Assembly: GCA_040285855.1 (NCBI GenBank)
Contig: JAUFOQ010000003.1
Coordinates: 1,798,001 to 1,862,000 of the forward strand
Reading direction: 5' to 3'
DNA length: 64,000 bases
Origin: Eukaryota sp. GEM-RC1
Taxonomy: Eukaryota
Each line of letters opens with the position of its first letter. Within the stretch, counting starts at the first letter, position 1. The notes beneath the pieces are model-generated. The model did no database searches and was not told the origin of the DNA. It saw only the letters and a program-made list of their open reading frames with translations. The position numbers and the translations under genes were made by a program. Below are positions 14,546 through 61,190 of the stretch, piece after piece.

Positions 14546-15601
14546 CTAATTGAAAACATCTAACGCCTGGTGCACTGCTGGTGGAATTGCCTGGTCATAT
14601 GAAGCCATCATAGTATCAATTTTTTTTTGATCGATTGACGTCTCCCTCATAAGAAAATGGTCAACATGCCGTAGATACACAGATTCTTCATCTTTGAGAA
14701 ATGCGTTCAGCTCATAGCAATAATCCCACAGCAATTCCGTTCGATCCTCTGGTTTAGCAGCGTGTAACGTGTCTAAAGTGGTTTTAAGAGTATGAATACG
14801 TTCTTGATACAGTTTCAATGGACGAAACTCATGAGTGATACGTCCAAGAGCAACAGGAAAGGAATGAATACTGTAGGCAAACTTTAAGTAGAAGGAATGA
14901 ACATAGTTACTGAAGAACTCGAGCAATTGGCTGAACTCGAATGGGTTATCTTCATAAAATGACTCCGCAATATTCAGGACTTTATGGATAACTGACAAAC
15001 ACTGCATCATTCTGGACGACACGTAGGAGGTAGCAATTGGAACTGTGGGGGGAACCTTGGTGTAGGTGAGATCAATGTTGGGGTCAAAGTCAGGGCGATT
15101 GGCAAAGTCAGTGTAAACTTTTTCCACGAAAGCCTCTGTAGCACGAACCTTTGGTGTTATATAAGACATGATGCGTTTTTGCAACATTTTAAGATCAAAA
15201 TCACCTATGAACAGCATGAGAGAAGGAAAAACCATGACTTCTTCAGCTGATCCATGTAGACCACTTAATGCTAAGTATTCATGCACCAATCGAAGGAAAA
15301 CATTAGCGTTCTTCTTATACTCTCCACACATTGCAGCATAAATAGACTTCAGTTGAGAGTGTTGATCTTTAATAGTCAGGACTCTGTCAACCAGAGGCGA
15401 CAGTTCGACGACAAAATCTGAGAGAGCCTCTTCTTCGCAATCACAGTGAAAAGAGAGGCAATAGTGTCCGATAAAGTCAAGATAAGGTTGAAGATCAGCA
15501 TTATTCCGAGGATATGATCGTAATAGATGCTGAAAAACGTCCATGGCTTTGTATATGACCAAATGCTGTCGCTTAAGTTCATCTGCGAGATCCAGATTCA
15601 T
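14546..15601 (-). CDS. Hemerythrin-like (HHE cation-binding) domain protein, copy 1
   Basis: ELKRQH..FHCDCEEE..KDQH..LHGSAEEVMVFP plus a degenerate second repeat; start set by comparison with copy 2. Confidence 0.75.
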   Translation of the reverse strand: MNLDLADELKRQHLVIYKAMDVFQHLLRSYPRNNADLQPYLDFIGHYCLSFHCDCEEEALSDFVVELSPLVDRVLTIKDQHSQLKSIYAAMCGEYKKNANVFLRLVHEYLALSGLHGSAEEVMVFPSLMLFIGDFDLKMLQKRIMSYITPKVRATEAFVEKVYTDFANRPDFDPNIDLTYTKVPPTVPIATSYVSSRMMQCLSVIHKVLNIAESFYEDNPFEFSQLLEFFSNYVHSFYLKFAYSIHSFPVALGRITHEFRPLKLYQERIHTLKTTLDTLHAAKPEDRTELLWDYCYELNAFLKDEESVYLRHVDHFLMRETSIDQKKIDTMMASYDQAIPPAVHQALDVFN

Positions 15602-15692
15602 CAGTGATTGGGAGATCAAGTTTTCTATTTTTGTTTGGTCGAATATCAAACACAGGTGTTTTAGTTCAAAACTTTCTGAGGGAGGTTGTTGC

Positions 15693-16651
15693 CAGAGGCT
15701 GTCAAAATTGAATTGGACTTCCAATTATTGCCAAGAAATTATTGTAATAATTGATTGGTGCCACTTACAGAATTGCCAATTAATTGCCAATTAACAGAGT
15801 TCACAAGAACACGAATTACAAGACTCGTTTTATTTGTAACACAGAATAAATATTTTAATCAGATTAGTGAGCTGAAAATTGGTAAGCATATTTCTGTTTC
15901 CCTTTTGACGACTTGTTTTGCGGCCAAAATCAAAATCAATCACTCTTTGCGCTCAATCAATCCTGAACTTACTATTGATTTAGCCAGAAAATTTAACTCT
16001 TTGAGACCTAAGTTCTTAAGTGATCTTGTAGAGGTTAATGACTCGAAATTGCCTTATCACGCGTTTTCATCAGCTAATTTTGGCGGTGTGGGTTTTTCTC
16101 GAGCTTCATACTTAACCAAAAATGTGTTTATTGGTGGAATGAAGAATTTTCTATTTGAATCTAAATCCCGATACGGCTTTTTGTTTAATGAAAATCTCAT
16201 TCAGTCTACTCCTTGGTTAGTTTCGTTAGTCCCAGTTATTGACGATTTGGATTTGGACACTTGGAATAGCTGTCTTCCTTCTCATTTACCCAGTATTCCT
16301 GAAAAATCTACATTGTCTCCCCCCTTATGTGTGGTCAAACTTCAGAATAAGCTTTTGAAGGCAATTGAAAACCTGGATTTTGAAAATCGTTTTAGTATTA
16401 CTAAAATTAATAATCCTGTTTTTGCTGCTTTCTTAAATGACATTAAGAATTCAACTTGTTTGAACACTCAACAACCACGTCCTTTTGGTTTGCATCTGTC
16501 TGATGAGGCTTGGAAATTAAATATGCGATTGCGTTTAGGTTTGTTTATATAAATTGGTTAATTGGGTTCAAATAATTGCAATTATTGCAATTATTGATTG
16601 GTACGTTTTGTGATGACAAATTCATTGCCAATTCAATTTTGACAGCCCCTG
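15693..16651. mobile_element. hAT-type non-autonomous element carrying a retrotransposon fragment
   Basis: TIR CAG(A/G)GGCTGTCAAAATTGAATTGG; perfect 8-bp TSD GTTGTTGC; internal ORF 15755..16552 (GGVGF..WKLNMRLRLGL) homologous to 18414-19040. Confidence 0.88.
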
Positions 16652-21629: not shown

Positions 21630-21788
21630 ATTTTTCCCAGTTCCTTGAACCTCAAAACTCCACTAAATACTTGTCTATTTTTCAACGTTTAATGAAGTTT
21701 TAATAAACTTCTGTGTGGGTTGCTTTCACCTCATAATTTGACGGCTGGAATGAGAACTCATATTTGGTTAAGTCCATAGAATTGTACT

Positions 21789-30501: not shown

Positions 30502-31557
30502 CTAATTGAAAACATCTAACGCCTGTTGCACTGCGGGTGGAATAGTCTGGTCATATGACGCCAGCATAGTATCAATTTGTTTTTGATCAATTGAAGTCTC
30601 CCTTATAAGAAAATGATCAACATGTCGTAGATACACAGATTCCTCGTCTTTCAGAAACGCGTTCAGCTCATAGCAATAATCCCATAGCAATTCCTCTCGG
30701 CCTTCTGGTTTGGCAGCCTGTAACGCGTCTAGAATGGTTTTAAGAGTCTGAATACGCTTTTGATACAGTTTCAATGGACGAAACTCGTGAGTGATACGTC
30801 CAAGATTTACAGGAAATGAATGTATACTGTACGCGAACTTCAAATAGAAGGAATGAACATAGTTACTGAAAAACTGGAGCAATTGGCTGAACTCAAAAGG
30901 TGTTTCATCATAAAATGACTCTGCAATATTCAGGACTTTATAGATCACCGCCGTACACTGCGTCATCCTGGACGAAACATAAGAGGGAACAATGGGAACT
31001 GTAGGGGGAACCTTGGTGTAGGTCAGATCAATGTTAGGGTCAAAGTCAGGGCGATTGGCAAAGTCAGTGTAGGCTTCTTCCACAAAAGCCTCTAAAGCAC
31101 GAACCTTTGGTGTTACATAAGACAGCATGCGTTTTTGCAACATTTCAAGATCAAAGTCTCCAATAAACACCATGAGAGAGGGAAAAACCATGGATTCTTC
31201 AGCTGATCCATGTAGACCACTTAATGCTACGTATTCATGAACCAATTCAAGGAAAACAGTATGGTTCTTCCGGTACTCTTCACACATAGAAGCGTGAAGC
31301 GACTTCAGTTTGGCGTGTTGATCCTTAATAGTCAGTACTCTGTCAACAAGAGGCGACAGTTCGACTACATAATCTGAGAGAGCCTCTTCTTCACAATCAC
31401 AGTGGAAAGAGAGGCAATAGTGACCGATAAAGTCAAGATAAGGTTGAAGGTCGGCACCATTCTGTGGATATGATCGTATTAGATGCTGAAAAACATCCAT
31501 GGCTTTGTATATGACCAAATGCTGTCGCTTAAGTTCATCTGCGAGATCCAGATTCAT
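30502..31557 (-). CDS. Hemerythrin-like (HHE) domain protein, copy 2
   Basis: Colinear close paralog of 14546..15601 with the same H/E motifs; upstream homology extends ~430 bp. Confidence 0.78.
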   Translation of the reverse strand: MNLDLADELKRQHLVIYKAMDVFQHLIRSYPQNGADLQPYLDFIGHYCLSFHCDCEEEALSDYVVELSPLVDRVLTIKDQHAKLKSLHASMCEEYRKNHTVFLELVHEYVALSGLHGSAEESMVFPSLMVFIGDFDLEMLQKRMLSYVTPKVRALEAFVEEAYTDFANRPDFDPNIDLTYTKVPPTVPIVPSYVSSRMTQCTAVIYKVLNIAESFYDETPFEFSQLLQFFSNYVHSFYLKFAYSIHSFPVNLGRITHEFRPLKLYQKRIQTLKTILDALQAAKPEGREELLWDYCYELNAFLKDEESVYLRHVDHFLIRETSIDQKQIDTMLASYDQTIPPAVQQALDVFN

Positions 31558-32015
31558 CAGTGATTGGGAGATCCAGTTTTCTATTTTTGTTTAGTCGAAG
31601 ATCAAAACTCGGTGTTTTAGTTCAAAATTGTCTTCTGAGCCACAATTGTTCTCTTCTCCCTTCTGAAATGAACTTGGAAGTCATAGACCCCATATTCGCT
31701 CCATCGTTCTAATGATAAATTACTCTGAATCGCAGTAGGCACACGTCTATAATTCTACAGTGTTTCTCTCAATTACTTCGTTAGTGGCCCTCATCTATAT
31801 GTATTTTTTATTACTTGTGTCATGTTAGAGGAATTTCAGTTCACTAAACAATTTTGAAGCGGTAGCCCTTTAACATCAACCCTGTTTCTCGTTTTCTCGG
31901 ATCTGAAGTGCGGATGAATGTGCTAGGGAGCGTCACGTTCAGTAATACATGTTAAGTAAATCAGAATTTTCTCTCAACATTCTAGGTGGATTGACGACAG
32001 TGACACAAAATGAAA

Positions 32016-34719: not shown

Positions 34720-34963
34720 GACTCCACATCACTGTGGAAAACTTACCTAAATCCATGAAGCAATCTAATTGACATCATCCATGGTGTCGTCGTAATGTTT
34801 TTGTGGCAGCTCCAATTGGCTTTTTAAGAGCTCGTCACCGTTAAAAGATCCCCTAACGGACAATCAATACACATAGCACGTCCAGAAACGGTTGAAGTGC
34901 AAGTAAGTGCCAATCCTATCGACACTGTGATAATCTTGTGAAATTTCTTCCAGTTTTACTAGT

Positions 34964-38145: not shown

Positions 38146-39067
38146 AAAAGGAAAATTAACAAGTCAGACAACATTGGGTAAATTGACAGAACTCTTTGAG
38201 AGAGTGTAACAGCTCCATCGTCGTCAGAGTTGTTCTCGGTCTCTTCTGAGCCCTAAGGCTGACACGACAGGTGTTTGTATTCTTGGATATCTTGATATAG
38301 ATTGTCTTGTTGAGTAGCTCAACACAACAATTTAAGAAGTAATTTCAATAGATTAGCTTTTATTATGATATGCATTTTTGTACCCTCCATCAATACACTG
38401 TTGTATTTCAATAGATTATTTCACCCTGAACAAACAAAAATCAATAATGGCTGTATCTTCAACACAAAAATGTGTAATTACAATGATGCAAATAATTTTT
38501 GTTGTTTCACTGAGCTTTTCTTACATCACTCACTATCACTGATAGCCTCAACCTGCTCATTATTGACATTAAGTGGATTTGGTTCAACAATTCGGCGTAC
38601 TGTGTCCACACTCCACAAATGTTTGTTGTAATTGAGAAACAACTGTTTCTCTAATGATGCATTGAAAGACTGTGTCGACAAAGACCGATAGTTGGTCCAG
38701 CTTGACATCTACATTTATGACGAATCAGTAACTAATTACACATTTTTGTGTTGAAGATACAGCCATTATTGATTTTTGTTTGTTCAGGGTGAAATAATCT
38801 ATTGAAATACAACAGTGTATTGATGGAGGGTACAAAAATGCATATCATAATAAAAGCTAATCTATTGAAATTACTTCTTAAATTGTTGTGTTGAGCTACT
38901 CAACAAGACAATCTATATCACGATATCCAAGAATACAAACACCTGTCGTGTCAGCCTTAGGGCTCAGAAGAGACCGAGAACAACTCTGACGACGATGGAG
39001 CTGTTACACTCTCTCAAAGAGTTCTGTCAATTTACCCAATGTTGTCTGACTTGTTAATTTTCCTTTT
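38146..39067. repeat. Long inverted repeat (335-bp arms, 252-bp spacer)
   Basis: 38146-38480 is the reverse complement of 38733-39067 with no indel and one mismatch seen. Confidence 0.95.
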
Positions 39068-39314
39068 GTTACCACTAAGCTAATAGCGCTATTAGCTTAG
39101 TGGTAACAAAAGGTCTGCTGCTCTTCAAAGGTCGAAGGTTCGAGTCCGGGTGAGGTCAAACAAGTAATAGTATGTCCTAAAACATGGACCACACAGAGGT
39201 GAGCTATTTCCTGGAGGTACTGCTAAGCTGGTAGCGTAAGAAAGACCCGACGAAGGGCACCAGCAAACCTTTTGTTACCACTAAGCTAATAGCGCTATTA
39301 GCTTAGTGGTAACA
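39062..39314 (+). mobile_element. tRNA-derived (A-box/B-box) 206-bp unit with 33-bp TIRs and palindromic junctions
   Basis: Perfect palindromes 39062-39113 and 39273-39314; A box TAGCTTAGTGG 39093, B box GGTTCGAGTCC 39137. Confidence 0.65.
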
Positions 39315-39848: not shown

Positions 39849-39979
39849 TTTGGAAATTATTGAGAATGACTAGAAGAATTGATAGTTCGCAGATCACAGA
39901 AGTAGAACTCATATACCAGTAAGCTCTACTTCCATTCCACTTCATCTCCCTTCTCTCACTACATGAAAGAATGTTCTGT

Positions 39980-40278
39980 TGAACGTTTCCAGAACTCCCG
40001 AAGCTCTTTTCAACCCTGCCAAACCTGATTTATGATTGCTCTTAGCTATTATTTACCTGAACCTGCCATGATTGGTCTTGAATCTCCCGCTATTCATGAA
40101 CAAACCTACAAGTCTATCATGAATCGACAAACGTATGGAGAAGGAAATGATCAACCAAGCTCCTCCTGCTGTAAAGATTAAGATTGTTGCTCCCCCAGAA
40201 AGAAAGTACTCTGTATAGATTGGAGGTTCCATTTTGTCATCTTTGACCACCTATGAATCTATGTGGATTACTCGTGAA
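39980..40278 (+). pseudogene. ACT: Actin C-terminal pseudogene fragment
   Basis: [65 protein letters not shown]; internal deletion, W-to-stop, truncated. Confidence 0.88.
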
Positions 40279-41100
40279 CATGTTATACCCTCTATGTGTA
40301 TTGATTGTCCGTTAGGGGATTTTCCCTGTGTTCGGTAGTTCGACTCCGTTTTAAATGATAGTTCAGATAAATATGAGTTTGTGCTGGAATAAATCACCTA
40401 TATCTATAGTAAATCGCAACTCAAAGTGACATTCAAGTTACAATATTTACTACTTCGACAACTGCTCAATATCGATGAATTGATTTAGTTTCAGATATTG
40501 GGGTCTTGTAGTGTGTTCCTTGTTATAAAGATACTAGTATGTCATTGTGCTCATTTTCAACATCTTTCATAAATCATGTATATCTTATAGTTTTCAACAA
40601 ATGTTGTATCACCAAATGTTGTTGTTACAAATGTTGTCAGTTTCAGTATGTCAAGATGTCACTGTAGACAACATCTATAAATAGTGTGAATTTATATTTG
40701 AGTCTAATTGCTTGGAGAGATGTCTATGGATACTTGTGTCCTGAGATCTCTCTCCTTCTTCTTTTCATCAACCAAACACGATCACGTGTTTAAGGATATG
40801 CCAAGAGAACATATTTTCTCGAGGCGTTCCTTTGTTCTACCTTTGTTACATGGTTTGTTTACTCACTTTTCGTCACTCAAACACGATCACGTGTTTAAGG
40901 ATGTGCCAAGAGAACATATTTTCTCGAGGCGTTCCTTTTTCTCTCATGGATTCTCGAATTATTCTATGTTGTTTCTTCTTTTGTTGTTGTTAGGGAAAGT
41001 CTTGAGTTCGTCTCAGTCGTTGTTTTGTTTTTACGATCATAAAGTCAGCACTTGTATGGTTTTTCTACAATCAAGTCTCCAGTCATCACAATTTCTCCGT

Positions 41101-41142
41101 GATTTGACTATGGACGGAGACATAGAGTCAAACCCTGGCCCA
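41101..41142 (+). other. 2A (StopGo) ribosome-skipping peptide
   Basis: DLTMDGDIESNPG/P fits the D(V/I)ExNPGP consensus, preceded by FLR. Confidence 0.9.
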
Positions 41143-41600
41143 GAAATTGCTTTTGGTGGTATTAGTCCTCTGGGTGATGAAACATGGCTAGAATCTTCAC
41201 ATTTAAATTTTGGGCATCACTTGATAGCACAAAAGTACCCTTTGCTGCAGAGATTATAGGAGATTTCGACCCTATGGAGTTTGGCAGCGCTATACGAAAT
41301 CAAGATAATTTGGCTGATGTTTCTGTAACCATTAAATCTAACAATGTTGGTAAAGTGTTGGTAGTAGTGCCTATTAATGATGCTATAACTGCATTATTTC
41401 CTGGAAGTCATTGGGGACTTGCTATTTACGATCTTGCTTTGAGTCATTTGTATTTCGCAGATTCCCTTAATGGAAAAATGTTCTTAAATTCAACCAAAGA
41501 ACATGTAGCACGTGCTAGCAATCTTTTTATCCTCACAATCTAAGTGTACCACAACAAAACAATGACTATGATTGTGGAATTTTTGTTTTATATTGTGATT
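41143..41600 (+). pseudogene. Ulp1/SENP8-like C48 protease domain 1 (spread over several reading frames)
   Basis: ETWLESSHL, VVVPIND..GSHWGLAIYD..YFADSL and, in a shifted frame, VPQQNNDYDCGIFVLY. Confidence 0.75.
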
Positions 41601-42890
41601 GAAACCTTGTATAAAAGCTTCAATAACCAGCTTTTGAATCAAGTTGATTTGCAGCATAAACTTCCAATATTGGCGGAGAAAGTGCAATCACTGCAAGAAT
41701 TGATCAATAACAACGACCCAGAAACTGAGCCAAAACAATTAGAAGACGCAAAGAATGACTATCAAAATGCCGTCAATCAGTTGATAGTTATTGATTTGAA
41801 GTATAAACTTGCAATATTGGCGGAGAAAGTGCAATCACTGCAAGAATTAATCAGCAACAACGACCCAAAAACTCAGGTAAAGCATTTAGAAAAGGCACAG
41901 AATGACTATCAAAATGCCATCAATCAGTATTACACAGAATACAATCGGTTGTTAGGTTTAAGTCATTGTACCGCATTCACCACATGTCAATTCGATTTAT
42001 CTTATCAAACTTTTGATCCCACAGTATACAGGACTATGTTAAATAATGAAATACGGAAATACCTAGGGTTACCTACTGACGTTCATTCAACCCAATCTCA
42101 ACAACAAATGAATATATCTGTTGGTACTTCTGCGATATCCGAACCTTCAACACTTATGTCATCTCCTGATGAAATTCCAGATTCAAATCCCAATGCTCTG
42201 ACACAAAGTGAATTACAACAGGTTTCAGAGGCAATCCAATCTTTGTCACCTGATGGTTGGATTGTGGACGATTGTGTTAATTGGTACTCTCAACATTTGA
42301 TGGAGATATATGGAGTTGATTTAAACGTCTTTGTAACTCCTGGATCTGTTCAATCATTTTTAGTTCATGAAAATCAATCTCTTCACGAGTTTTTCATCAA
42401 CAAGATTCTTCAGGAAAATTCTAGATATCTGTTTCTTCCTATAAATGACGCATTGATTAACGAAAGTTCTGGTATACATTGGGGTTTGATTGTAATCGAT
42501 ACACATGATGAACTTTTCATCTTTCTCGATCCTCTTTATGATGTTGAAGATCACAGACAAGATGTTGGTAAAAATTTATATGAAATTAATTCTTTTTTGA
42601 ATCAAGTTATTTCGAAAGTAGATGAAACTCTTCATCAACTCAATTATCGACTCATTATTGTTCCAGTGATAGAGAAGCAAACACCAAATGATTGTGGAAT
42701 TTATGTTCTTGAGTATATGAGAGGACTTTTAGAACTTCTCACTTCACATGAATTATCAGATCAACCTCTTATTCAAGCTGCTGGTATATTGTTGCAAAAC
42801 TCTATCAATGCTCAAGAGAGTAGGCAAGTAATAAAATTGTATCTTCAATCTTTACAACCAACTATAGTTCCACCTACACTTCCTCAGTAA
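41544..42890 (+). CDS. Helical repeat region plus Ulp1/SENP8-like C48 protease domain 2
   Basis: DGWIVDDCVNWY, LFLPIND..SGIHWGLIV..FLDPL, KQTPNDCGIYVLEY (H-D-C triad); duplicated ~49-aa LAEKVQSLQELI repeat. Confidence 0.82.
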   Translation: MYHNKTMTMIVEFLFYIVIETLYKSFNNQLLNQVDLQHKLPILAEKVQSLQELINNNDPETEPKQLEDAKNDYQNAVNQLIVIDLKYKLAILAEKVQSLQELISNNDPKTQVKHLEKAQNDYQNAINQYYTEYNRLLGLSHCTAFTTCQFDLSYQTFDPTVYRTMLNNEIRKYLGLPTDVHSTQSQQQMNISVGTSAISEPSTLMSSPDEIPDSNPNALTQSELQQVSEAIQSLSPDGWIVDDCVNWYSQHLMEIYGVDLNVFVTPGSVQSFLVHENQSLHEFFINKILQENSRYLFLPINDALINESSGIHWGLIVIDTHDELFIFLDPLYDVEDHRQDVGKNLYEINSFLNQVISKVDETLHQLNYRLIIVPVIEKQTPNDCGIYVLEYMRGLLELLTSHELSDQPLIQAAGILLQNSINAQESRQVIKLYLQSLQPTIVPPTLPQ

Positions 42891-43261: not shown

Positions 43262-46200
43262 ATGAATTTCCTGAAATTCCAGTTGTTAAAGGAAAAAAGG
43301 AAAAAGAATCAAGAATTCCATTTATTGACATTGCAACTGATACTGTTGTTGATGACTCCCCTTCCTACAGTTTTTATAATTGATATTGAAACAAGAAATA
43401 TCAATGAGAGAATTCCTTCAAGAGTGAACAAAGAATTGAATGAACATCGTAAAACAGAAAAAGAGTCTTTGAAACAGAGAAGATCTTTAATGAATGATTT
43501 TGAGAAAGAAGCTCACGACTTTGATTTTCTCTCAGAACAACAAATCATCATGATCTCTGTCATTATTGCAAAACTACAACCCGATGGTAAGTTACAATTT
43601 GACAACTCAATCGTTCTTTACACTGACTACAACTATAAAATCAAATTCAGTGAATCAGAAACACCAGCTTTTAAATTAGATCTTTTGGACTTCCCAAATG
43701 AAAACGAATAATTGGTTACATACGCTAATATTGTTAATCAATATAAACCAAATGCTTTTATTGGACATAACATTTTCAATTTTGATTTGCCCATAATTGA
43801 CAATAGAATGTGGGCTCTTGACCTTCCTCTTTTAACAAATCCAAATCCAATTCAGTTGCCTTTACATAGTAGATGGCTGGATATCATAAAAGATCACAAT
43901 GGTTTTACAGTTTTGGATACCTTTTTGTTTGCAAAGAAGTATATTGGTCTCAAGTATGGTTGTAGTCTAGCCAATTTATCTTGGAATTTACTTTCTGAAC
44001 CCAAATTGAAATTGGATAAAGACTTGGACCACTTACTCCCAGTTGATTGTTTAAGAAGTGATAAAAGAATGAAAACGCTAATCAACTACTGTCTTCATGA
44101 TTCAATTTTGGCGTTTAAATTGTTTATTTTATTTCAAAAAGACAAAATTGTTTTTCAATCATGGGCTTCTATTAAAACGTCAGTTGTTAGTGTGGTAAAA
44201 CATCAAGAAGTTCAAGATGCAATGCTTTTAGGATCTCAGTTCTACAATGCGTTAAGACAACAGACTACAATGTGTGTTAAAGAATATCTGTTGGCTCGCT
44301 ATCGTCTTGGACAAGATTTGTCTAAGTTTGATTACAAGTTATTTTATCATACAATGCTTTCAATTAGAAATCTTTCATCTAAAGTTCATAACTTTAAAAT
44401 TCCAAATAATTGTCCTATACGAACGATTGATACAGATCTTCGTGATTTTGTTGCTGGAGAAGGTATTTATACTGCCAATTCAAACTATCCTGGATATAAG
44501 CACTGTGTTACTGATACATTTGGCACATGTCATTTACCAGAACTTGATCTTGATCATATCAGCAGAGCTTTTGAATACACTACTCAGTATGAAATGTGGC
44601 CTGCGTTTGAACTAAATATTCGTCGCAATTATGAGTTGTACATTAAAAGATTTATCAATACAGTAATGGGTAAGAAAGAGTTTGAAAAGGGAATGAAAGA
44701 GAGTCGTAATTTAGTTTTAGGTCCAGAACTTGCAAGACTAACAGGACGTGAAGCTCAAAAATTCACTAGTTACTTCAGATGTCGATTAAAGATGTTGAAA
44801 GACCAGATTTTGTATCGACCTAGAGATGAAGCCTTACAGTATATTAATTCTTTTAACTCTGCCACTCACCCTGAAAATGTTAAGTTTATTGATGAAGTTT
44901 CTAAAGTTTTTAATGACGATTTCAGTATGTTAATATTTGAACAGATCAATTCCCTAATGGCTGATAAAATTCCACAATTACTTCAAAGATTTAACATCAT
45001 ATTTCCTACTTCAATCACTGCTAACGACAATGAAACTGTAGACGTTCATAATTTACTTTACACAGTTCAGGAGTATCCACTTCATTTTCTAAGAAATTCT
45101 CTTCAAATCTCAGATTACTTGGAATCCAAGGGTGCTAAGTTGTATAATGTAATTCCTCTAAGTTTAGAGAATACTCCTTGTTTTTTCCCAATAGATACCA
45201 GAACTCTTTGGGGACTGGCTAAGCACTGTTTTGGATATAAGAATAATGACAAGAAGATTGGTCCTTTACATTCAAAAGTGACTAATTACATGTCTGCTGG
45301 TCAGATCATCAACATGACCCATTCTCAACAACAAGATTACTGGAAAAGATGGTTTAACTATGATGACAGAAGTTTTCACAAAGCCAATTTTGAATTCAAC
45401 AACTATGCTGTAACTGATGGAATTTCGATTTGTTTTCAATTTGTGAGAAAGGATCTGAAAGGAATGAAATGTAAACCTGATTCAAGTAAAGCTTCAGTAA
45501 AAGTACAATATTTCAATGAATGTGATAGGTCTGATTTTATTTCTAAACAAATGGTTTATGTGGACATTGGAAAGAGAGATATGCTACAACTTGCATCTAA
45601 ATCAAATAGGGAAACTCAAAATCCTCTAAAAAAATACAACTTTTTACGATTGACATATGCTGAGTGGTCTAGAGTTTCAAGAAAGCACAAAAGAATCCAC
45701 CAGTACCTTGTTAGAAGGAGATCAGGTACTACTACCGTGAGAGCAGGTGATGATATTCCAATAACTGTGACAATGAAAATTGAGAAATGGAACACTTGGT
45801 TAAGTGAAGAACAGGATTCTAAAACTGTTAATTACACTAAATTTAGAAAGTTTATTCTGGCTAAATGTATTCACTACAATGCAACTAAAGACTTCTATGC
45901 TTTGCATATATGGAGGATTCACAAAATCCAAAATCATGTCCATAAGCAAAAGACAGAGTCTAAATTGGTTAACAGCATTGTAAAAACTTTTGGTAGCCGT
46001 GACAAAATCGTACTATGTATTGGTGATTTAGGCCAGAAGCCAATCACCAACTTAAAGCACAGTCCACCATCCAGAACTAAGACTTGGACTTCATTCTTTC
46101 AGAGAAATGGTTTTCTAACAGTGTTGAATGATGAGAGAAACACTTCGTCCAAGTGTCCAGAATGTCATGAAGATGTTTTTGAAACTTCTATTGAGGTTGT

Positions 46201-46444
46201 CAACCCAAAGCCAAAATCAAGAGAGAAGAGAGAATGGATTCACCCCCATGGCTTACTAGAGTGTAAGAGTGAACATTGTCTGGGAGAAGTCAAGAAGCGA
46301 TTGAAGGGGGATAAGATAGGGCATACAGTGCCCAGTCAAATGTATTGGAATCGCAACAAGATGGCTTGCTTGAACATGATGAACATGTTCGAGCATTGGA
46401 TGAATGGTAGTGATGAGAGAGTAGAGTATCTGAGTAGAAATTAG
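43262..46444 (+). CDS. PolB-type DEDDy 3'-5' exonuclease fused to Fanzor1-like (TnpB-derived) RuvC nuclease; one in-frame TAA at 43709
   Basis: Exo motifs IIDIET, IGHNIFNFDLP, YCLHD; Fanzor motifs LYNVIPL..PIDT, VTDGIS, VYVDIGKRD, LCIGDLG, NDERNTSSKCPEC..CKSEHC, WNRNKMACLNM. Confidence 0.88.
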
Positions 46445-46520
46445 TTTTATTTTTGTTAGCTGGCCGGTGAAACCCGGCCATATTTGGTTAAGTCCATTGT
46501 TATTTGTCATACCCTCATGA
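46445..46520 (+). ncRNA. Candidate Fanzor omegaRNA scaffold / right end
   Basis: GC-rich hairpin TGGCCGG-TGAAAC-CCGGCCA (46461-46480) 16 nt after the Fanzor stop in otherwise AT-rich DNA; position matches known Fanzor/TnpB loci; extent unknown. Confidence 0.5.
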
Positions 46521-55409: not shown

Positions 55410-57668
55410 TTAAGCAATATATTCATAGATGGGATTATTCCGAGCTACTATACCGAATTCATTCTCGTTCAATTCCTTAGTACAATAATCTTCCTCTTGA
55501 AGTGACTCCAATGTCTGCTTAAAGAAATCCCGATCAATAATGAACTTATTAATTAAAATATCTTGAACTCGCTGCTTCAGTTCAATAAAGGAAACACGGC
55601 GATCTGTTTTCAAAACTCTTACAATGGCTGCCCTTAGCGAAACAGTTCTGGATGCTGCCAGAACTGATTTTTCCTAATTGTTGAAAGTACATCAGACGTT
55701 GGAAGTAAGGAAAGTGTGGGCATCGAAGGTTTAAACTTTGGATTAAGTAAAAACACATCTTGAGGAGCAAATTGTGCATCATCTTTGGTTGTTGGTTTCT
55801 TGCTGATTTTACCAATCACCATAGTCTCGTACTTGCAATTTAGACACCTACCTGTTGTGTTAGAGGCAGTTCTACAGACACTACAAAGTTTAGACTTTTT
55901 GTTACACTTTCTTTGTAACAATAGTGTTAAAACGTCATCTAATGTTTTTTCATCCACTCCAGACTCTTGTAATAAATAGTGGTAAGAAACTACAAACTTA
56001 GGGTGTGACCTTAATAACAATAAGACCTGGGCTTGTGGTAGCAAGCACCGGACAGTTACAGGAGAACCATACAAGGAAGTCTGTAAGTGAACAATAGAGG
56101 TTGCAGGAATTAAAGTAAGATTTCGAGCAGGAAACTTGCTATCGTAGAATGTACGAAGGTTCTCCCACGTGGATTCGAACTGTGGTAAGAGGCGGCAAGA
56201 ACCAAGATCTAAAGTCCAATCTTTTGTTGAACCAATAATGACTGACAATTGTTGAACTCCTGGAGTTGGAAAGTTGAGTTGAGAACTAAGTTCTTTAGAT
56301 ACATTCTTAACGTCACTAATCATTTGAGTTGCAGTTCCAAATTCATCTTCAAAAGTGGTTTTAAATTTGTTCAACACTATCTCTTCCCTTGCGAACTTCT
56401 CTTCTGTATAATCTTGGGATAAAAGTCTATTCTGTAACAAAAGACTATGTGTTGTATAGAAAGCGTCAGGTGAGGGAAGAAAGGGAATTAGGCAAAAAAC
56501 TGACTCAAATAAAACAACAAATTCATCGTCAGAGATTTGACTTTCAGTAGCACATAGCAAATGGTGGACATAGTGAATCAAAACTATTGCTATATCCTCA
56601 TAATGATCAGTTTTAAACACTTCACGGAAAGTCTTTTCTGCAAGCTCAGAAAAAACCAAGTTACGAAGAAAACACTTTGGAACAACTTCATTAAAGTACA
56701 ACTGACAAAAGGAAATTAGAGGTTTAACAAAATCTTCGACAACTTTCCTATTATTGAGCTGTAAACGTGGCACTTCTGATTGAGTCAAAAATGATACTAT
56801 CGCTCCCTTAACTAATGATTCGAACTGATTGTGAAACTCTGCAAAGGGTGGATTAAACCATAGAATTGTTCCAAAAACTTTAAATTTTGTTCAGAATCAA
56901 TGTTAATAATCCAGTTTTGAATAATTTGAGGATCATCAAAGAAACTTGGAACATAAGGTATTAACATCGTATTATGTACAATTTCCTTTGTTTCCTTTAA
57001 AAATCTATTCTGTAACTTGAGTTCACACAGATTTTGAACAAGAGACATTGAATCATGAACCTCTTGAACATACTCATGCAATGGGCGTTGAATATCTTGG
57101 GCAGCCTTTGCGGTATAGTAGGATGTAAGAAACTCTAGAAAAGGAAGTTCAAAGATCTCACGGAAGAGAGATTGGTTCTTAATTGAAAGGAGGAGGTTCA
57201 CAGTGGTATCCAGGGTATTGTCTTCGTCAACAAAGAGATTAAGGATGTTTGAGAGTCTATTTTTGAGAGATTCTTTGATCTTTTGGTTGAGATCGGAGTG
57301 GCCGTTATACCCGAGTAAGCCGTCGAGGAAGGAAGACTTACAGTCGTCTGCAGTTATGTTGACCAGGGAGAAGAGACTGAATATGTGATGAGCGCTGTTA
57401 AGGACTACTTGCCATCTTTCAGCAAGAGTTGGTAGAAGCGTGATTCTTCCTTTATGCTGGAGAAGATACTCACGAGAGGATTGTCCGAAAAGCAACATTC
57501 TTTCTCCCAGAAAGTCCTGAAGTCTATTCCCTCCAGTGGAAGTTAAGAGAGAATGGACTTTGTCGTGAATAAGACGATAAGAAACACCAGACTTCTTCTT
57601 TTCTAGGATTCCTATTACAGCAGGATCAAAGGAGTAGTTCCAGTCATAAAAAGGGAAGATCTGCGCAT
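55410..57668 (-). CDS. Divergent cullin, copy 1 (frameshifted)
   Basis: FELPFLEFLTSYY, DAFY..LLQNRLL, QMISD, FYDSKFPARNLT, AAIVRVLKTDR..LESL..EDY neddylation domain. Confidence 0.82.
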
Positions 57669-58544
57669 TCGATTGAAAAATTTGAAATTCTAATTTTGGT
57701 TTACACTGAAACCGAAACCAATTCTAAATATCGATATGCTTATTTAGATAGCACTAATATTCATCACCTTATTGAACTCCTTCAAAGTGAAATTAGTGTA
57801 CACCACATTATTAATGTGTGTTCATCCACAAACAATTTGTTTCGATGTGTGTTTATTCTATATACTAGTAACGTGAAACTTTATATAGTGTAGGTCCTTA
57901 TAGTTTTTCTATGAACAGTTTTGACTAACATTAATTAACGAGGGTCAAACTATTACTTTGAAGTAAGTGTATACGAGTTTTGTCAGACTAATCTTAATTA
58001 CACCAAATGTTGTAGAACTAGGTAAGTGACCGTCAAAAGAGTTCGTCGGATAGGATTTGATCCGTGCTCTTTTACTTTTAGATTTATAATGAAATTTCTT
58101 TGATAGAATTAACAGTAATCCCAAGAAGTGTCAATCAAAGAGTTCGTTTTCGCTCCTTCACATCGTTAATAGTGTACTGTTACAAGATTCTGTTAATAGG
58201 TACTTTTAAAATCATCGACAAATCCAAATAGAGTTTCAAAATTTGTAAGATGATCAACATCAATGCATTAACTTTGTTTGGTTTTAACCACTTGTACTGA
58301 TAGACCATTAACAGTGCGTCTCGATTTCTTTGTTGTTGCAGAATGTTGCAGATACGACGTCATAGGTCTTCTCTAATAGGAGTAGTTTTCAGGAAATAAT
58401 GGAATGGTATTAACCTATTGTTACTGTTCTCTATTATGTGGTATTACAGATGTATGATATGATAATTAAACCAATAGTTGAAATGTATTATTTGAAAAAT
58501 GATTATGAAAATGAAGAAGCTTTGTGATCCAATTAACTATTTAA

Positions 58545-60728
58545 TTAGGCAATATACTCATATATGGGATTCTTTTGATCCAAAATACCGAATTCATTCT
58601 CGTTTAATTCCTTAGTACAATACTCCCGTTGTTGAAGTGACTCCAGCGTATTTTTAAAGAATTCACGTTCAATCGCGAACTTATTAATCAAAATATCTTG
58701 AACTCGTTGCTTTAAATCTGTAAAGGAAACACGGCGATCTGTTTTCAATACTCTGACAATTGATGCTTCCAAAACATGTCTACGTGATTCCATCAGAGCT
58801 GGATTTTCTTTAGTTGAGGAATGATCAGCAGAACCTTGAATTAAAGAGATTAGCTGCGCTGATGTCCTGAATTTTGGATTCAACACAAAGAGATCTTTTG
58901 GAGTAAATTCAACTTTACCAGGAGTTTTTTTGTGTGCTTTTCTAAAGATTAAAGATTGTCCATTAGACTTAAATGGCAACATACTCAACAAAACATTGTT
59001 TAAACTAATGTCATCAACACGTAATTCTTGCTGGAGAGAACTGTATGATTGAGCAAATTTAGGATCAGGTCTTAATAACAGCAACACTTGGGCTTGAGGA
59101 AGGTAGCAACGAATAGTCACTGGGGGACCATATATGGAAGTTTGTAAGTGAACAACTGATTTAGTAGGGATCAGGGTCAATCGACGTGATTGAAACTTAT
59201 TTGTGTAAAACGTTCGAAGGTTCTCCCACGTGGATTCGAACTGTGGTAAGAGGCGGCAAGAACCAGAATCCAATCGCCAGTCTTTTGATGAACCGACAAT
59301 GACTGACAATTGTTGAACTCCTGGAGTTGGAAAGTTGAGTTGAGAATTAAGTTCAGTAGAAACATTCTTAACGTCACCAATCATTTGAGTTGCCGCGCTG
59401 AATTCATCTTCAAAAGTGGTTTTAAATTTGTTCAACACTATTTCTTCCCTTGCGAACTTCTCTTCTGTATATTCTTGGGTCAAAAGTCTATTCTGCAGCA
59501 GCCCGACATGTGTTGTATAGAAAGCGTCAGGTGAGGGGAGAAAGGGAATTAGACAAAAACTGACTCAAATAATACAACAAATTCATCGTCAGATATTTGG
59601 CTTTCAGTAGCACATAGCAAATGGTGGACATAGTGAATCAAAACTATTGCTATAGACTCGAACTGTTTAGTTTTAAACACTTCACGGAAAGTCTTTTCTG
59701 CAACCTCAGCAAAGACCAAGTTTCGAAGAAAACACTTTGGAACAACAACACTAAAGTATAACTGACAAAAGGTAATTAGAGGTTTAACAAAATCTTCGAC
59801 AACTTTCCTATTATTTAGTTGCTTATTTGGAACTTCTGATTGAGTCAGGAATGACACTAAAGCTGTCTCAACTAATGATTCGAACTGGGTGTGGAACTCT
59901 GCAAAAGGGTGGATTAAACCATAGAATTGTTCCAAAAAGATTAAATTCTGTTCATAATCAATGTTCATAATCCAGTTTTGAATAATTTGAGGATCATCAA
60001 AAAACTTGGAACATAAGGTATTAACATTGTGTTTTCAACAATTTCTTTTGTTTCCTTCAAAAATCTATTCTGTAACTTGCGTGCGGACAGATTTTGAACT
60101 TCTTCCATTGAATCATGTACTGATTTGACATACCCATGTAAAGGACGTTGAATATCTTGGGCAGCCTTTGCGGTATAGTAAGACGTAAGAAACTCTAGAA
60201 AAGGAAATTCAAAGATCTCACGGAAGAGAGATTGGTTCTTAATTGAAAGGAGGAGGTTCACAGTGGTATCCAGAGTATTGTCTTCGTCAACAAAGAGATT
60301 AAGGATGTTTGAGAGTCTATTTTTGAGAGATTCTTTGATCTTTTGGTTGAGATCGGAGTGGCCGTTATACCCAAGTAAGCCGTCGAGGAAGGAAGACTTA
60401 CAGTCGTTTGAAGTTATTCGAACAAGAGAGAAGAGACTGAATATGTGATGAGCGCTGTTGAGAAACATTTGCCATCTTTCAGCAAGAGTTGGTAGAAGCG
60501 TGGCTTCTCCTTTATGTTGCAGAAGATACTCACGAGAGGATTGTCCGAAAAGCAACATTCTATGGCCTAAGAAATCCCGTAGTCTATTCCCTCCAGTAGC
60601 AGTTAAGAGAGAATGGACTTTGTCATGAATCTCACGATAAGAAACACCAGACTTCTTGTTCTCAAGGATTCCTATTACAGCAGGATCAAAGGAGTAGTTC
60701 CAGTCATAAAAAGGGAGGAACTTCGCAT
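58545..60728 (-). CDS. Divergent cullin, copy 2 (frameshifted)
   Basis: Tandem paralog of copy 1; RHVLEASIVRVLKTDRR..LESLQQREY C-terminal winged-helix. Confidence 0.84.
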
Positions 60729-61190
60729 AGCTGGCAAATTTGAAGATTTGAAATCCTTATACTTTTGAGATGATTCTGTTTGCTAATTTCGAGTGAGACC
60801 TTCACCGTGTGTCAAACTGTAGGTCTCTTTTCTAGGTAATGGCGGAAATCATGTATTTGAAATGAAATCTACAACTTTTAGATTTGGGGAAAGAATTCCA
60901 TTTTTTAAAATGATGTTACTTTGAGTACAATCTGTCGCAAACATATATACTCAAAAGGTGGGATATCAGTTGATAGAAGACGGTAAAATATGGGGTTATA
61001 TCGCAAAATCGAGAAAATAAACGATGCACGAAGTATATTTTAGGTGAAAATATACTGTAGAAAATATACTGTAGATGAATTAAAGTATGAATATAAATGT
61101 CTCTTCAAAACTGAGAATTTCGTCAAATGATCCAATGCCAGTAAATCTGTGATTCACTAGAATAAATTCAAAAAATACTAAAAACTAAAC

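Follow-up and report, generated by a model that had tools for sequence, protein, structure and literature searches.

The window, by which we mean the whole 64-kb stretch of DNA analysed, holds a copy of a mobile element whose polyprotein, broken here into pieces, has the domain order 2A, Ulp1, Ulp1, exonuclease, Fanzor1 (Table 1). The first protease domain carries the expected His (SHWGL, 41406), Asp (FADSL, 41454), and Cys (DCGIF, 41570) motifs. Pfam gave no match when the window pieces of this domain were searched alone, and it called protease 1 of the sister protein P0035 a Peptidase_C48. A basic, Ser-rich linker separates the second protease from the exonuclease, in which the motifs DIET (43382), GHN..NFD (43763), and YC..D (44087) were found and whose four acidic residues are kept both in the window and across subfamilies that are 21 to 55% alike. 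Fanzor1 is fused behind this PolB-type DEDDy exonuclease in the window (43364-46444) and also in P0022, P0040, P0048, P0072, and P0192.

Table 1. Positions of the element's features in the window
Feature	Position	Strand	Basis or detail
Possible left end	40292..40323	+	32-mer, 97% match at 34876-34845 (- strand), ending at 40292
Leader frame, 119 codons from first ATG	40720..41076	+	later ATGs at 40726, 40798, 40966, 41056
Hydrophobic run MLFLLLLLL ("signal-like" stretch)	40966..40992	+	hydropathy of Met starts
Class A 2A/StopGo peptide, DLTxDG type	41077..41142	+	21/22 identical to P0027, 18/22 to P0035
Ulp1/C48-type protease 1	41143..41596	+	in three frames; aligns with protease 1 of P0035
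Two 138-nt repeats between the proteases	41644..41928	+	49-codon spacing, family D1, 88% identity
Ulp1/C48 protease 2	42243..42734	+	Pfam PF02902, E 7e-9; His/Asp/Cys motifs present
PolB-type DEDDy 3'-5' exonuclease	43364..44101	+	Pfam PF03104; stop at 43709
Fanzor1 nuclease	44500..46444 (start approximate)	+	profile matches to PDB Fanzor1 structures
Candidate omega-RNA scaffold and right end	46445..46497	+	GC hairpin 46461-46480, then 19-mer ending at 46497

When a profile of eight family sequences was compared to the PDB, two of the three matches with E values below 1 were Fanzor1 structures, SpuFz1 (8gkh_P, E 1.3e-18) and PpFz1 (9cf0_P, E 5.3e-16). The RuvC residues are an Asp at 45563, an alternative Glu at 46133, six residues before CxxC (46127-46165), and an Asn at 46355. 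This alternative position of the RuvC-II Glu, six residues before CxxC, is described as a Fanzor signature (PMC10711439), and an Asn as the third catalytic residue is reported to be compatible with activity in GtFz1 (PMC11423790). The idea that the Asn of the triad marks a dead nuclease was rejected, since the active GtFz1 has Asn as well. The RuvC-I motif reads DIG in the window, DLG in P0022, and DPG in P0040, P0192, P0043, and P0045.

The GC hairpin of the candidate scaffold had a fold z score of -1.92, with 9 of 200 shuffles folding as well, and Rfam gave no match. The 19-mer at the right end recurs at 21759-21777; this match and that at 34845-34876 are isolated and lie in orientations incompatible with one element. 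Both flanks of the possible ends (40280-40291 and 46498-46516) contain TGTTAT and ATACCCTC, perhaps as an imperfect target duplication or a guide region, and a broken actin fragment (39950-40279) ends just before the possible left end. No long inverted repeats around the element were found in the window, and no transposase Pfam match was found in the element ORFs or the sister proteins. Other features of the window include perfect inverted repeats of 335 nt that enclose 252 nt (38146-39067), probably a non-autonomous transposon; two copies of a 47- to 52-nt perfect palindrome within inverted arms (39062-39314); two related hemerythrin-like ORFs with weak Pfam matches (14546-15724 and 30502-31590); and duplicated cullin fragments (55634-60756).

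The polyprotein frame of the window copy is interrupted by about six frame changes and by stop codons at positions 42888 and 43709. It changes about 32 codons past the skip site described below, where P0027 continues in one frame. Several of the frame changes sit in homopolymer runs, and sisters share the location of two breaks (P0027; P0028 and P0034). Similar frame changes occur at ten junctions of overlapping host ORFs in the window, five of them without a candidate short intron. The host ORFs concerned include formin (35356), adaptin (6717), cullins (56812-60034), ESF1 (61909), and eIF2A (1107), with several of the changes at homopolymers, which suggests residual assembly indels. The named sister records are described as coming from assemblies of Nanopore data with short-read correction (bioRxiv 2023.05.03.539051). 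Taken together, the homopolymer breaks, the recurring breaks, the changes in host ORFs, and the Nanopore origin indicate that assembly error may account for part of the damage. Both stops may be real, and the broken copy may make no product.

The 2A motif and its predicted activity

A search of all six frames of the window for D[VI]ExNPGP/ExNPGP gave a single match, at 41098-41142. The peptide reads RDLTMDG-DIESNPG/P, with RDLTMDG encoded by 41098-41118 and the core octamer by 41119-41142; FLRDLTMDGDIESNPG/P ends at 41142, and the predicted skip point falls between Gly (41137-41139) and Pro (41140-41142). A chance match was ruled out by the expectation for the core in the window, which is 3.3e-5; with the upstream (R/K)DLTx(D/E)G added, a motif that was picked post hoc, the expectation is 1.6e-12. 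The class A core D(V/I)ExNPG/P and the Gly that precedes it are both present, as is the upstream motif of the DLTxDG class, with Phe where the usual Trp stands.

A sequence-only reading of this DNA had placed two peptides here, a signal-like leader and a 2A directly before protease domain 1. Both MLFLLLLLLGKVLSSSQS (from 40966) and LQSSQFLRDLTMDGDIESNPG/P (41077-41142) were found where that reading had them, within one stop-free frame (40708-41259). The placing before protease 1 is also borne out: in the window copy the 2A shares its frame with the first 32 protease 1 codons, and the Ulp1-type domain begins just past the skip site with LGDETWL (41170-41190). In the gene models P0027, P0035, and P0192 the frame continues from the motif through the whole domain.

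The window peptide fits motif 4 of Li et al. 2026 apart from the Phe for Trp; this motif, WV(R/K)DLTx[acidic]G, is linked in that paper to Asp and Ser in the core (PMC12846837). According to the same source, a tested example of motif 4 was almost 100% active in reticulocyte lysate and a core variant with His for Glu, although rare, was >95% active (PMC12846837). The last 15 residues of the window peptide are identical at 14 of 15 positions to the picornavirus entry A42 in Table S2 of Rao et al. 2025, where the activity of A42 is given as N/A (PMC12338488). The same study lists an activity of 0.6 for PnPV 2A1, an iflavirus 2A of the DLTxDG class, and reports 14 of 17 class A peptides as active (PMC12338488). 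In a library of 1602 peptides, only 18.64% of cells were reported in the active gate (Baral et al., bioRxiv 2026.09.24.754024), and the motif by itself has been described as no guarantee of activity (Odon 2013). We predict with good confidence that the window 2A is active.

Related copies and the positions of their 2A motifs

The proteins nearest to those of the window (88 to 97% identity) are labelled Eukaryota sp. GEM-RC1, and more distant relatives come from TZLM1-RC and TZLM3-RCL, which are free-living metamonads. One isolate has at least 18 related gene models, and the first cluster of sisters is represented by the 15 of its 18 members that were listed. HMMER was run against 1.84 billion representatives at an E value of 0.001, and the best 150 of 1052 matches were used. 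The 203 proteins classed comprised 133 other Fanzor-like matches and 70 members of this family. Among the 70 were three models of the window itself as well as 16 representatives assigned on the basis of score and domain overlap, the rest being the named sisters. Fragments that start downstream of any 2A site make up most of the 70; an NPGP-ended 2A motif was found in 9 of the 70, and, among the matches listed, NPGP occurred in none of the 133 other Fanzor-like proteins. Related loci were looked for in metagenome contigs, viral contigs, and phages, and none were found.

Eight subfamilies were distinguished by exonuclease identity, which is about 21 to 55% between them; the exonuclease tree (FastTree, 12 rows) has weak deep nodes and served for grouping only, not for the order of events. 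2A motifs occur in five of the eight, at exonuclease identities of only about 21 to 42%, in three metamonad isolates, in several versions and at varied positions, and in every case upstream of the nuclease. A 2A stands before two proteases in the P0035 type and in the window type (window and P0027), although P0008 of the window type has a different 2A directly before its linker and exonuclease. The P0192 type has a 2A before one protease, in a single 1192-aa frame that runs through to the Fanzor end. The 2A of the P0072 type (P0072, P0200, and P0201) precedes the exonuclease and has His in place of the core Glu, and that of the P0022 type (P0022 and P0025) follows the Ulp1 Cys motif. The most distant versions share 9 to 14 of 22 identities, and Trp occupies the motif-4 register in P0008, P0192, and P0072. 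Conservation in sister copies had been proposed earlier as a check on the motif, and its recurrence across divergent subfamilies and three isolates, in differing versions and positions, supports the claim that a 2A stands at the head of a protease-Fanzor polyprotein. With sister proteins from three metamonad isolates carrying it, the 2A is a family trait of these elements.

No 2A was seen in models of the P0040, P0048, and P0057 types. The P0040-type models start 139 to 365 aa before the exonuclease, the P0048-type models 65 to 98 aa before it, and the P0057-type models 3 aa before it. P0189, of the P0040 type, starts 1070 aa before it; this is an exonuclease-Fanzor model behind a DEAH-type helicase, either a host-gene insertion or a gene-model fusion. 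These three types may be truncated or may be true negatives, and since no 2A was seen in three of the eight subfamilies, the 2A is possibly dispensable. The AlphaFold model of P0192 is poor (mean pLDDT 43.5, with residues 1-530 below 50), and an ESM Atlas search with this protein gave no usable match.

Comparison of individual copies points to exchange of parts. The exonuclease of P0008 is 95% identical to that of the window, yet P0008 has another 2A and no protease. P0035/P0030 match the window at 61% in protease 2 and at 18 of 22 positions in the 2A, and at only 27% in the exonuclease. These mixes of 2A, protease, and exonuclease suggest that modules have been swapped between elements.

The leader and the possible role of the 2A

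We lean towards a reading in which the element is a multi-copy protist mobile element, a canonical 2A/StopGo heads its protease-exonuclease-Fanzor1 polyprotein, and this 2A would likely release a short, variable leader, with the enzyme part starting at the same Pro. Ribosomes skipping at the 2A would shed the leader and give the enzyme part a fixed Pro N terminus, and the enzyme start would then be independent of the start codon or 5' sequence of any one copy. The leader would be translated from upstream ATGs and would itself be dispensable. Elements could also exchange 5' modules (the leader, one or two Ulp1 domains) with the 2A as the joint; in copies of the TZLM1-RC lineage, the 2A would instead part protease from nuclease. 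Because the 2A is constant while the parts before and after it vary, a fixed Pro start with module exchange is the simplest interpretation. The Ulp1 domains might counter SUMO-based silencing or process the polyprotein, and the exonuclease might trim the ends left by cutting, so that the element is copied more readily. More tentatively, metamonad Fanzor DNA elements as a whole might make their RNA-guided nuclease as a 2A-processed polyprotein, StopGo having been gained repeatedly from RNA viruses as joints for swapping leaders and SUMO-protease modules and a catalytically complete exonuclease chewing the ends that Fanzor cuts.

The leader frame of the window has no stops, versus three and three in the other two frames; it is as open in 8 of 5000 shuffles, a count that rises to 42 of 5000 when one repeat unit is left out, and it carries a 73-nt direct repeat, at a spacing of 105 nt, in frame. 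A frame more open than chance and a repeat that keeps the frame suggest that translation starts within 40720-40798. The ATG at 40966, previously taken as the head of the leader, is the fourth in frame, behind those at 40720, 40726, and 40798. A weak TATA-like box, TATAAATA, lies at 40676; no such box stands out before 16 host ORFs, and it is therefore given little weight. Leader lengths across the family copies range from 0 to 226 aa. No similarity above shuffles was found between the leaders of the window and P0027 or between subfamilies, although sister leaders are automatic gene models in which predicted introns or sequence errors could mimic unrelatedness. The same was true when frame changes were allowed, so the possibility that the sister leaders are frame-shifted readings of the window leader DNA was rejected. 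An ESM Atlas search with the leader gave only leads below 0.9.

One alternative, which we judge unlikely, is that the leader is a signal or anchor and that the 2A splits the product, skipped chains remaining cytosolic or nuclear and unskipped chains going to the ER. Sea-urchin NLR 2A signal sequences are a described precedent for such dual targeting (PMC4981915). The run at 40966 has a hydrophobic core of at least eight residues (LFLLLLLL, 40969-40992) and is among the 3 of 2172 Met positions in the six frames of the window that are so hydrophobic, and by a simple hydropathy score P0027 and P0192 begin signal-like as well. However, this Leu run has no basic n-region, the DNA around it is 48% T, a share that places it in the top 0.8% of 90-nt windows, and both other frames over it score equally hydrophobic; upstream of it lie three ATGs in the same frame, which is more open there than in shuffles; and the leaders share no homology, with five of the eight (P0008, P0035, P0072, P0200, and P0201) not starting signal-like. 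The mean hydropathy of the 60 aa before the 2A is positive in 8 of 8 sequences scored, but it is also positive before the internal 2A of P0025, so this measure does not discriminate. The case for a signal-like leader is thus weak, although the Leu run is real. Of the earlier proposal that the 2A releases the enzymes from a membrane-targeting leader, the part that stands is the 2A heading the enzyme part; membrane targeting is not established.

Somewhat less probable again is that the 2A mainly limits the nuclease dose, some ribosomes stopping there so that less Fanzor than mRNA or guide RNA is made, as a form of self-restraint. The position of the 2A upstream of the nuclease in all cases fits such a role, which has been put forward for non-LTR elements (PMC3708506), but motif-4 peptides are reported among the most efficient tested (PMC12846837). 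Dose control is compatible with leader release and may act alongside it. A 2A without a role, left as an inactive relic or carried along as a hitch-hiker after a single capture from a virus or retroelement, would accord with the broken window copy, the three subfamilies that show no 2A, and the inactive 2A-like relics described in non-LTR elements (PMC3708506), but we consider this very improbable, as the core is kept in at least five distinct versions whose flanks change (9 to 14 of 22 identities) and the motif lies at different domain borders in three isolates. Family-wide use of StopGo in these elements would also explain why N termini are mis-called in database models of these nucleases.

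Comparison with known systems

Natural StopGo is described as largely viral, with scattered cellular cases, chiefly in retroelements. In the openly available papers searched, a 2A was found neither for a Fanzor nor for a DNA transposon, and nothing was found that joined StopGo and TnpB. Judged by title, the work retrieved for Fanzor and Ulp1 was unrelated, and judged by title and abstract, the literature joining Fanzor and a 2A peptide was engineering only. Natural transposon 2A-like sequences were non-LTR only, among the matches listed. A word search of the available text of Fanzor papers gave no mention of an exonuclease, and the available supplements of Rao et al. 2025 contained no entry for GEM-RC, TZLM, Skoliomonas, or Ulp1 (PMC12338488). 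The window motif would place a recoding element of known type in a new kind of host, behind a putative signal peptide. If true, this would be the first natural StopGo use in a DNA transposon or for an RNA-guided nuclease, and family-wide use in Fanzor DNA elements would extend StopGo to a new mobile-element class and to metamonad ribosomes. The family offers several natural 2A variants for testing. Its natural fusions of Fanzor to an exonuclease or a protease, of which at least one model (P0192) is unbroken, bear on the spread of eukaryotic RNA-guided nucleases and on genome editing.

Like class A 2A peptides of RNA viruses (DLTxDG; PMC12846837), the window peptide has the D(V/I)ExNPG/P core with its preceding Gly, (R/K)DLTxDG, and the core Ser, and near-identical entries are listed for picorna-like viruses (Rao et al. 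2025). Unlike the viral DLTxDG peptides, it has Phe for Trp and a predicted activity, and it is carried by a DNA element of a protist nuclear genome. APE-type non-LTR retrotransposons (L1Tc, Ingi, CR1, and Rex1) are likewise described with a 2A near the N terminus of a single long ORF, behind a short leader (PMC3708506). The cargo here is instead Ulp1, DEDDy exonuclease, and Fanzor1, and the position of the 2A varies among Fanzor subfamilies, whereas it is nearly fixed in the non-LTR elements (PMC3708506). No Pfam match to reverse transcriptase or APE domains was found in five element ORFs or 15 sister proteins, and the identity of the element as a non-LTR retrotransposon was rejected for this reason. 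The window copy resembles the 2A-like signal sequences of sea-urchin NLRs in having a hydrophobic stretch upstream of the 2A (PMC4981915), and it differs from them in three respects: about 60 residues separate the run from the skip site, the run probably does not stand at the N terminus, and it is not conserved. Like the known Fanzor1 proteins SpuFz1, PpFz1, and GtFz1, the nuclease has the alternative RuvC Glu six residues before the zinc finger, with Asn third, as in the active GtFz1. Unlike them, it follows Ulp1 proteases and a PolB-type exonuclease in one fusion protein and shows DIG for DPG in the window subfamily, and no transposase was found in the element.
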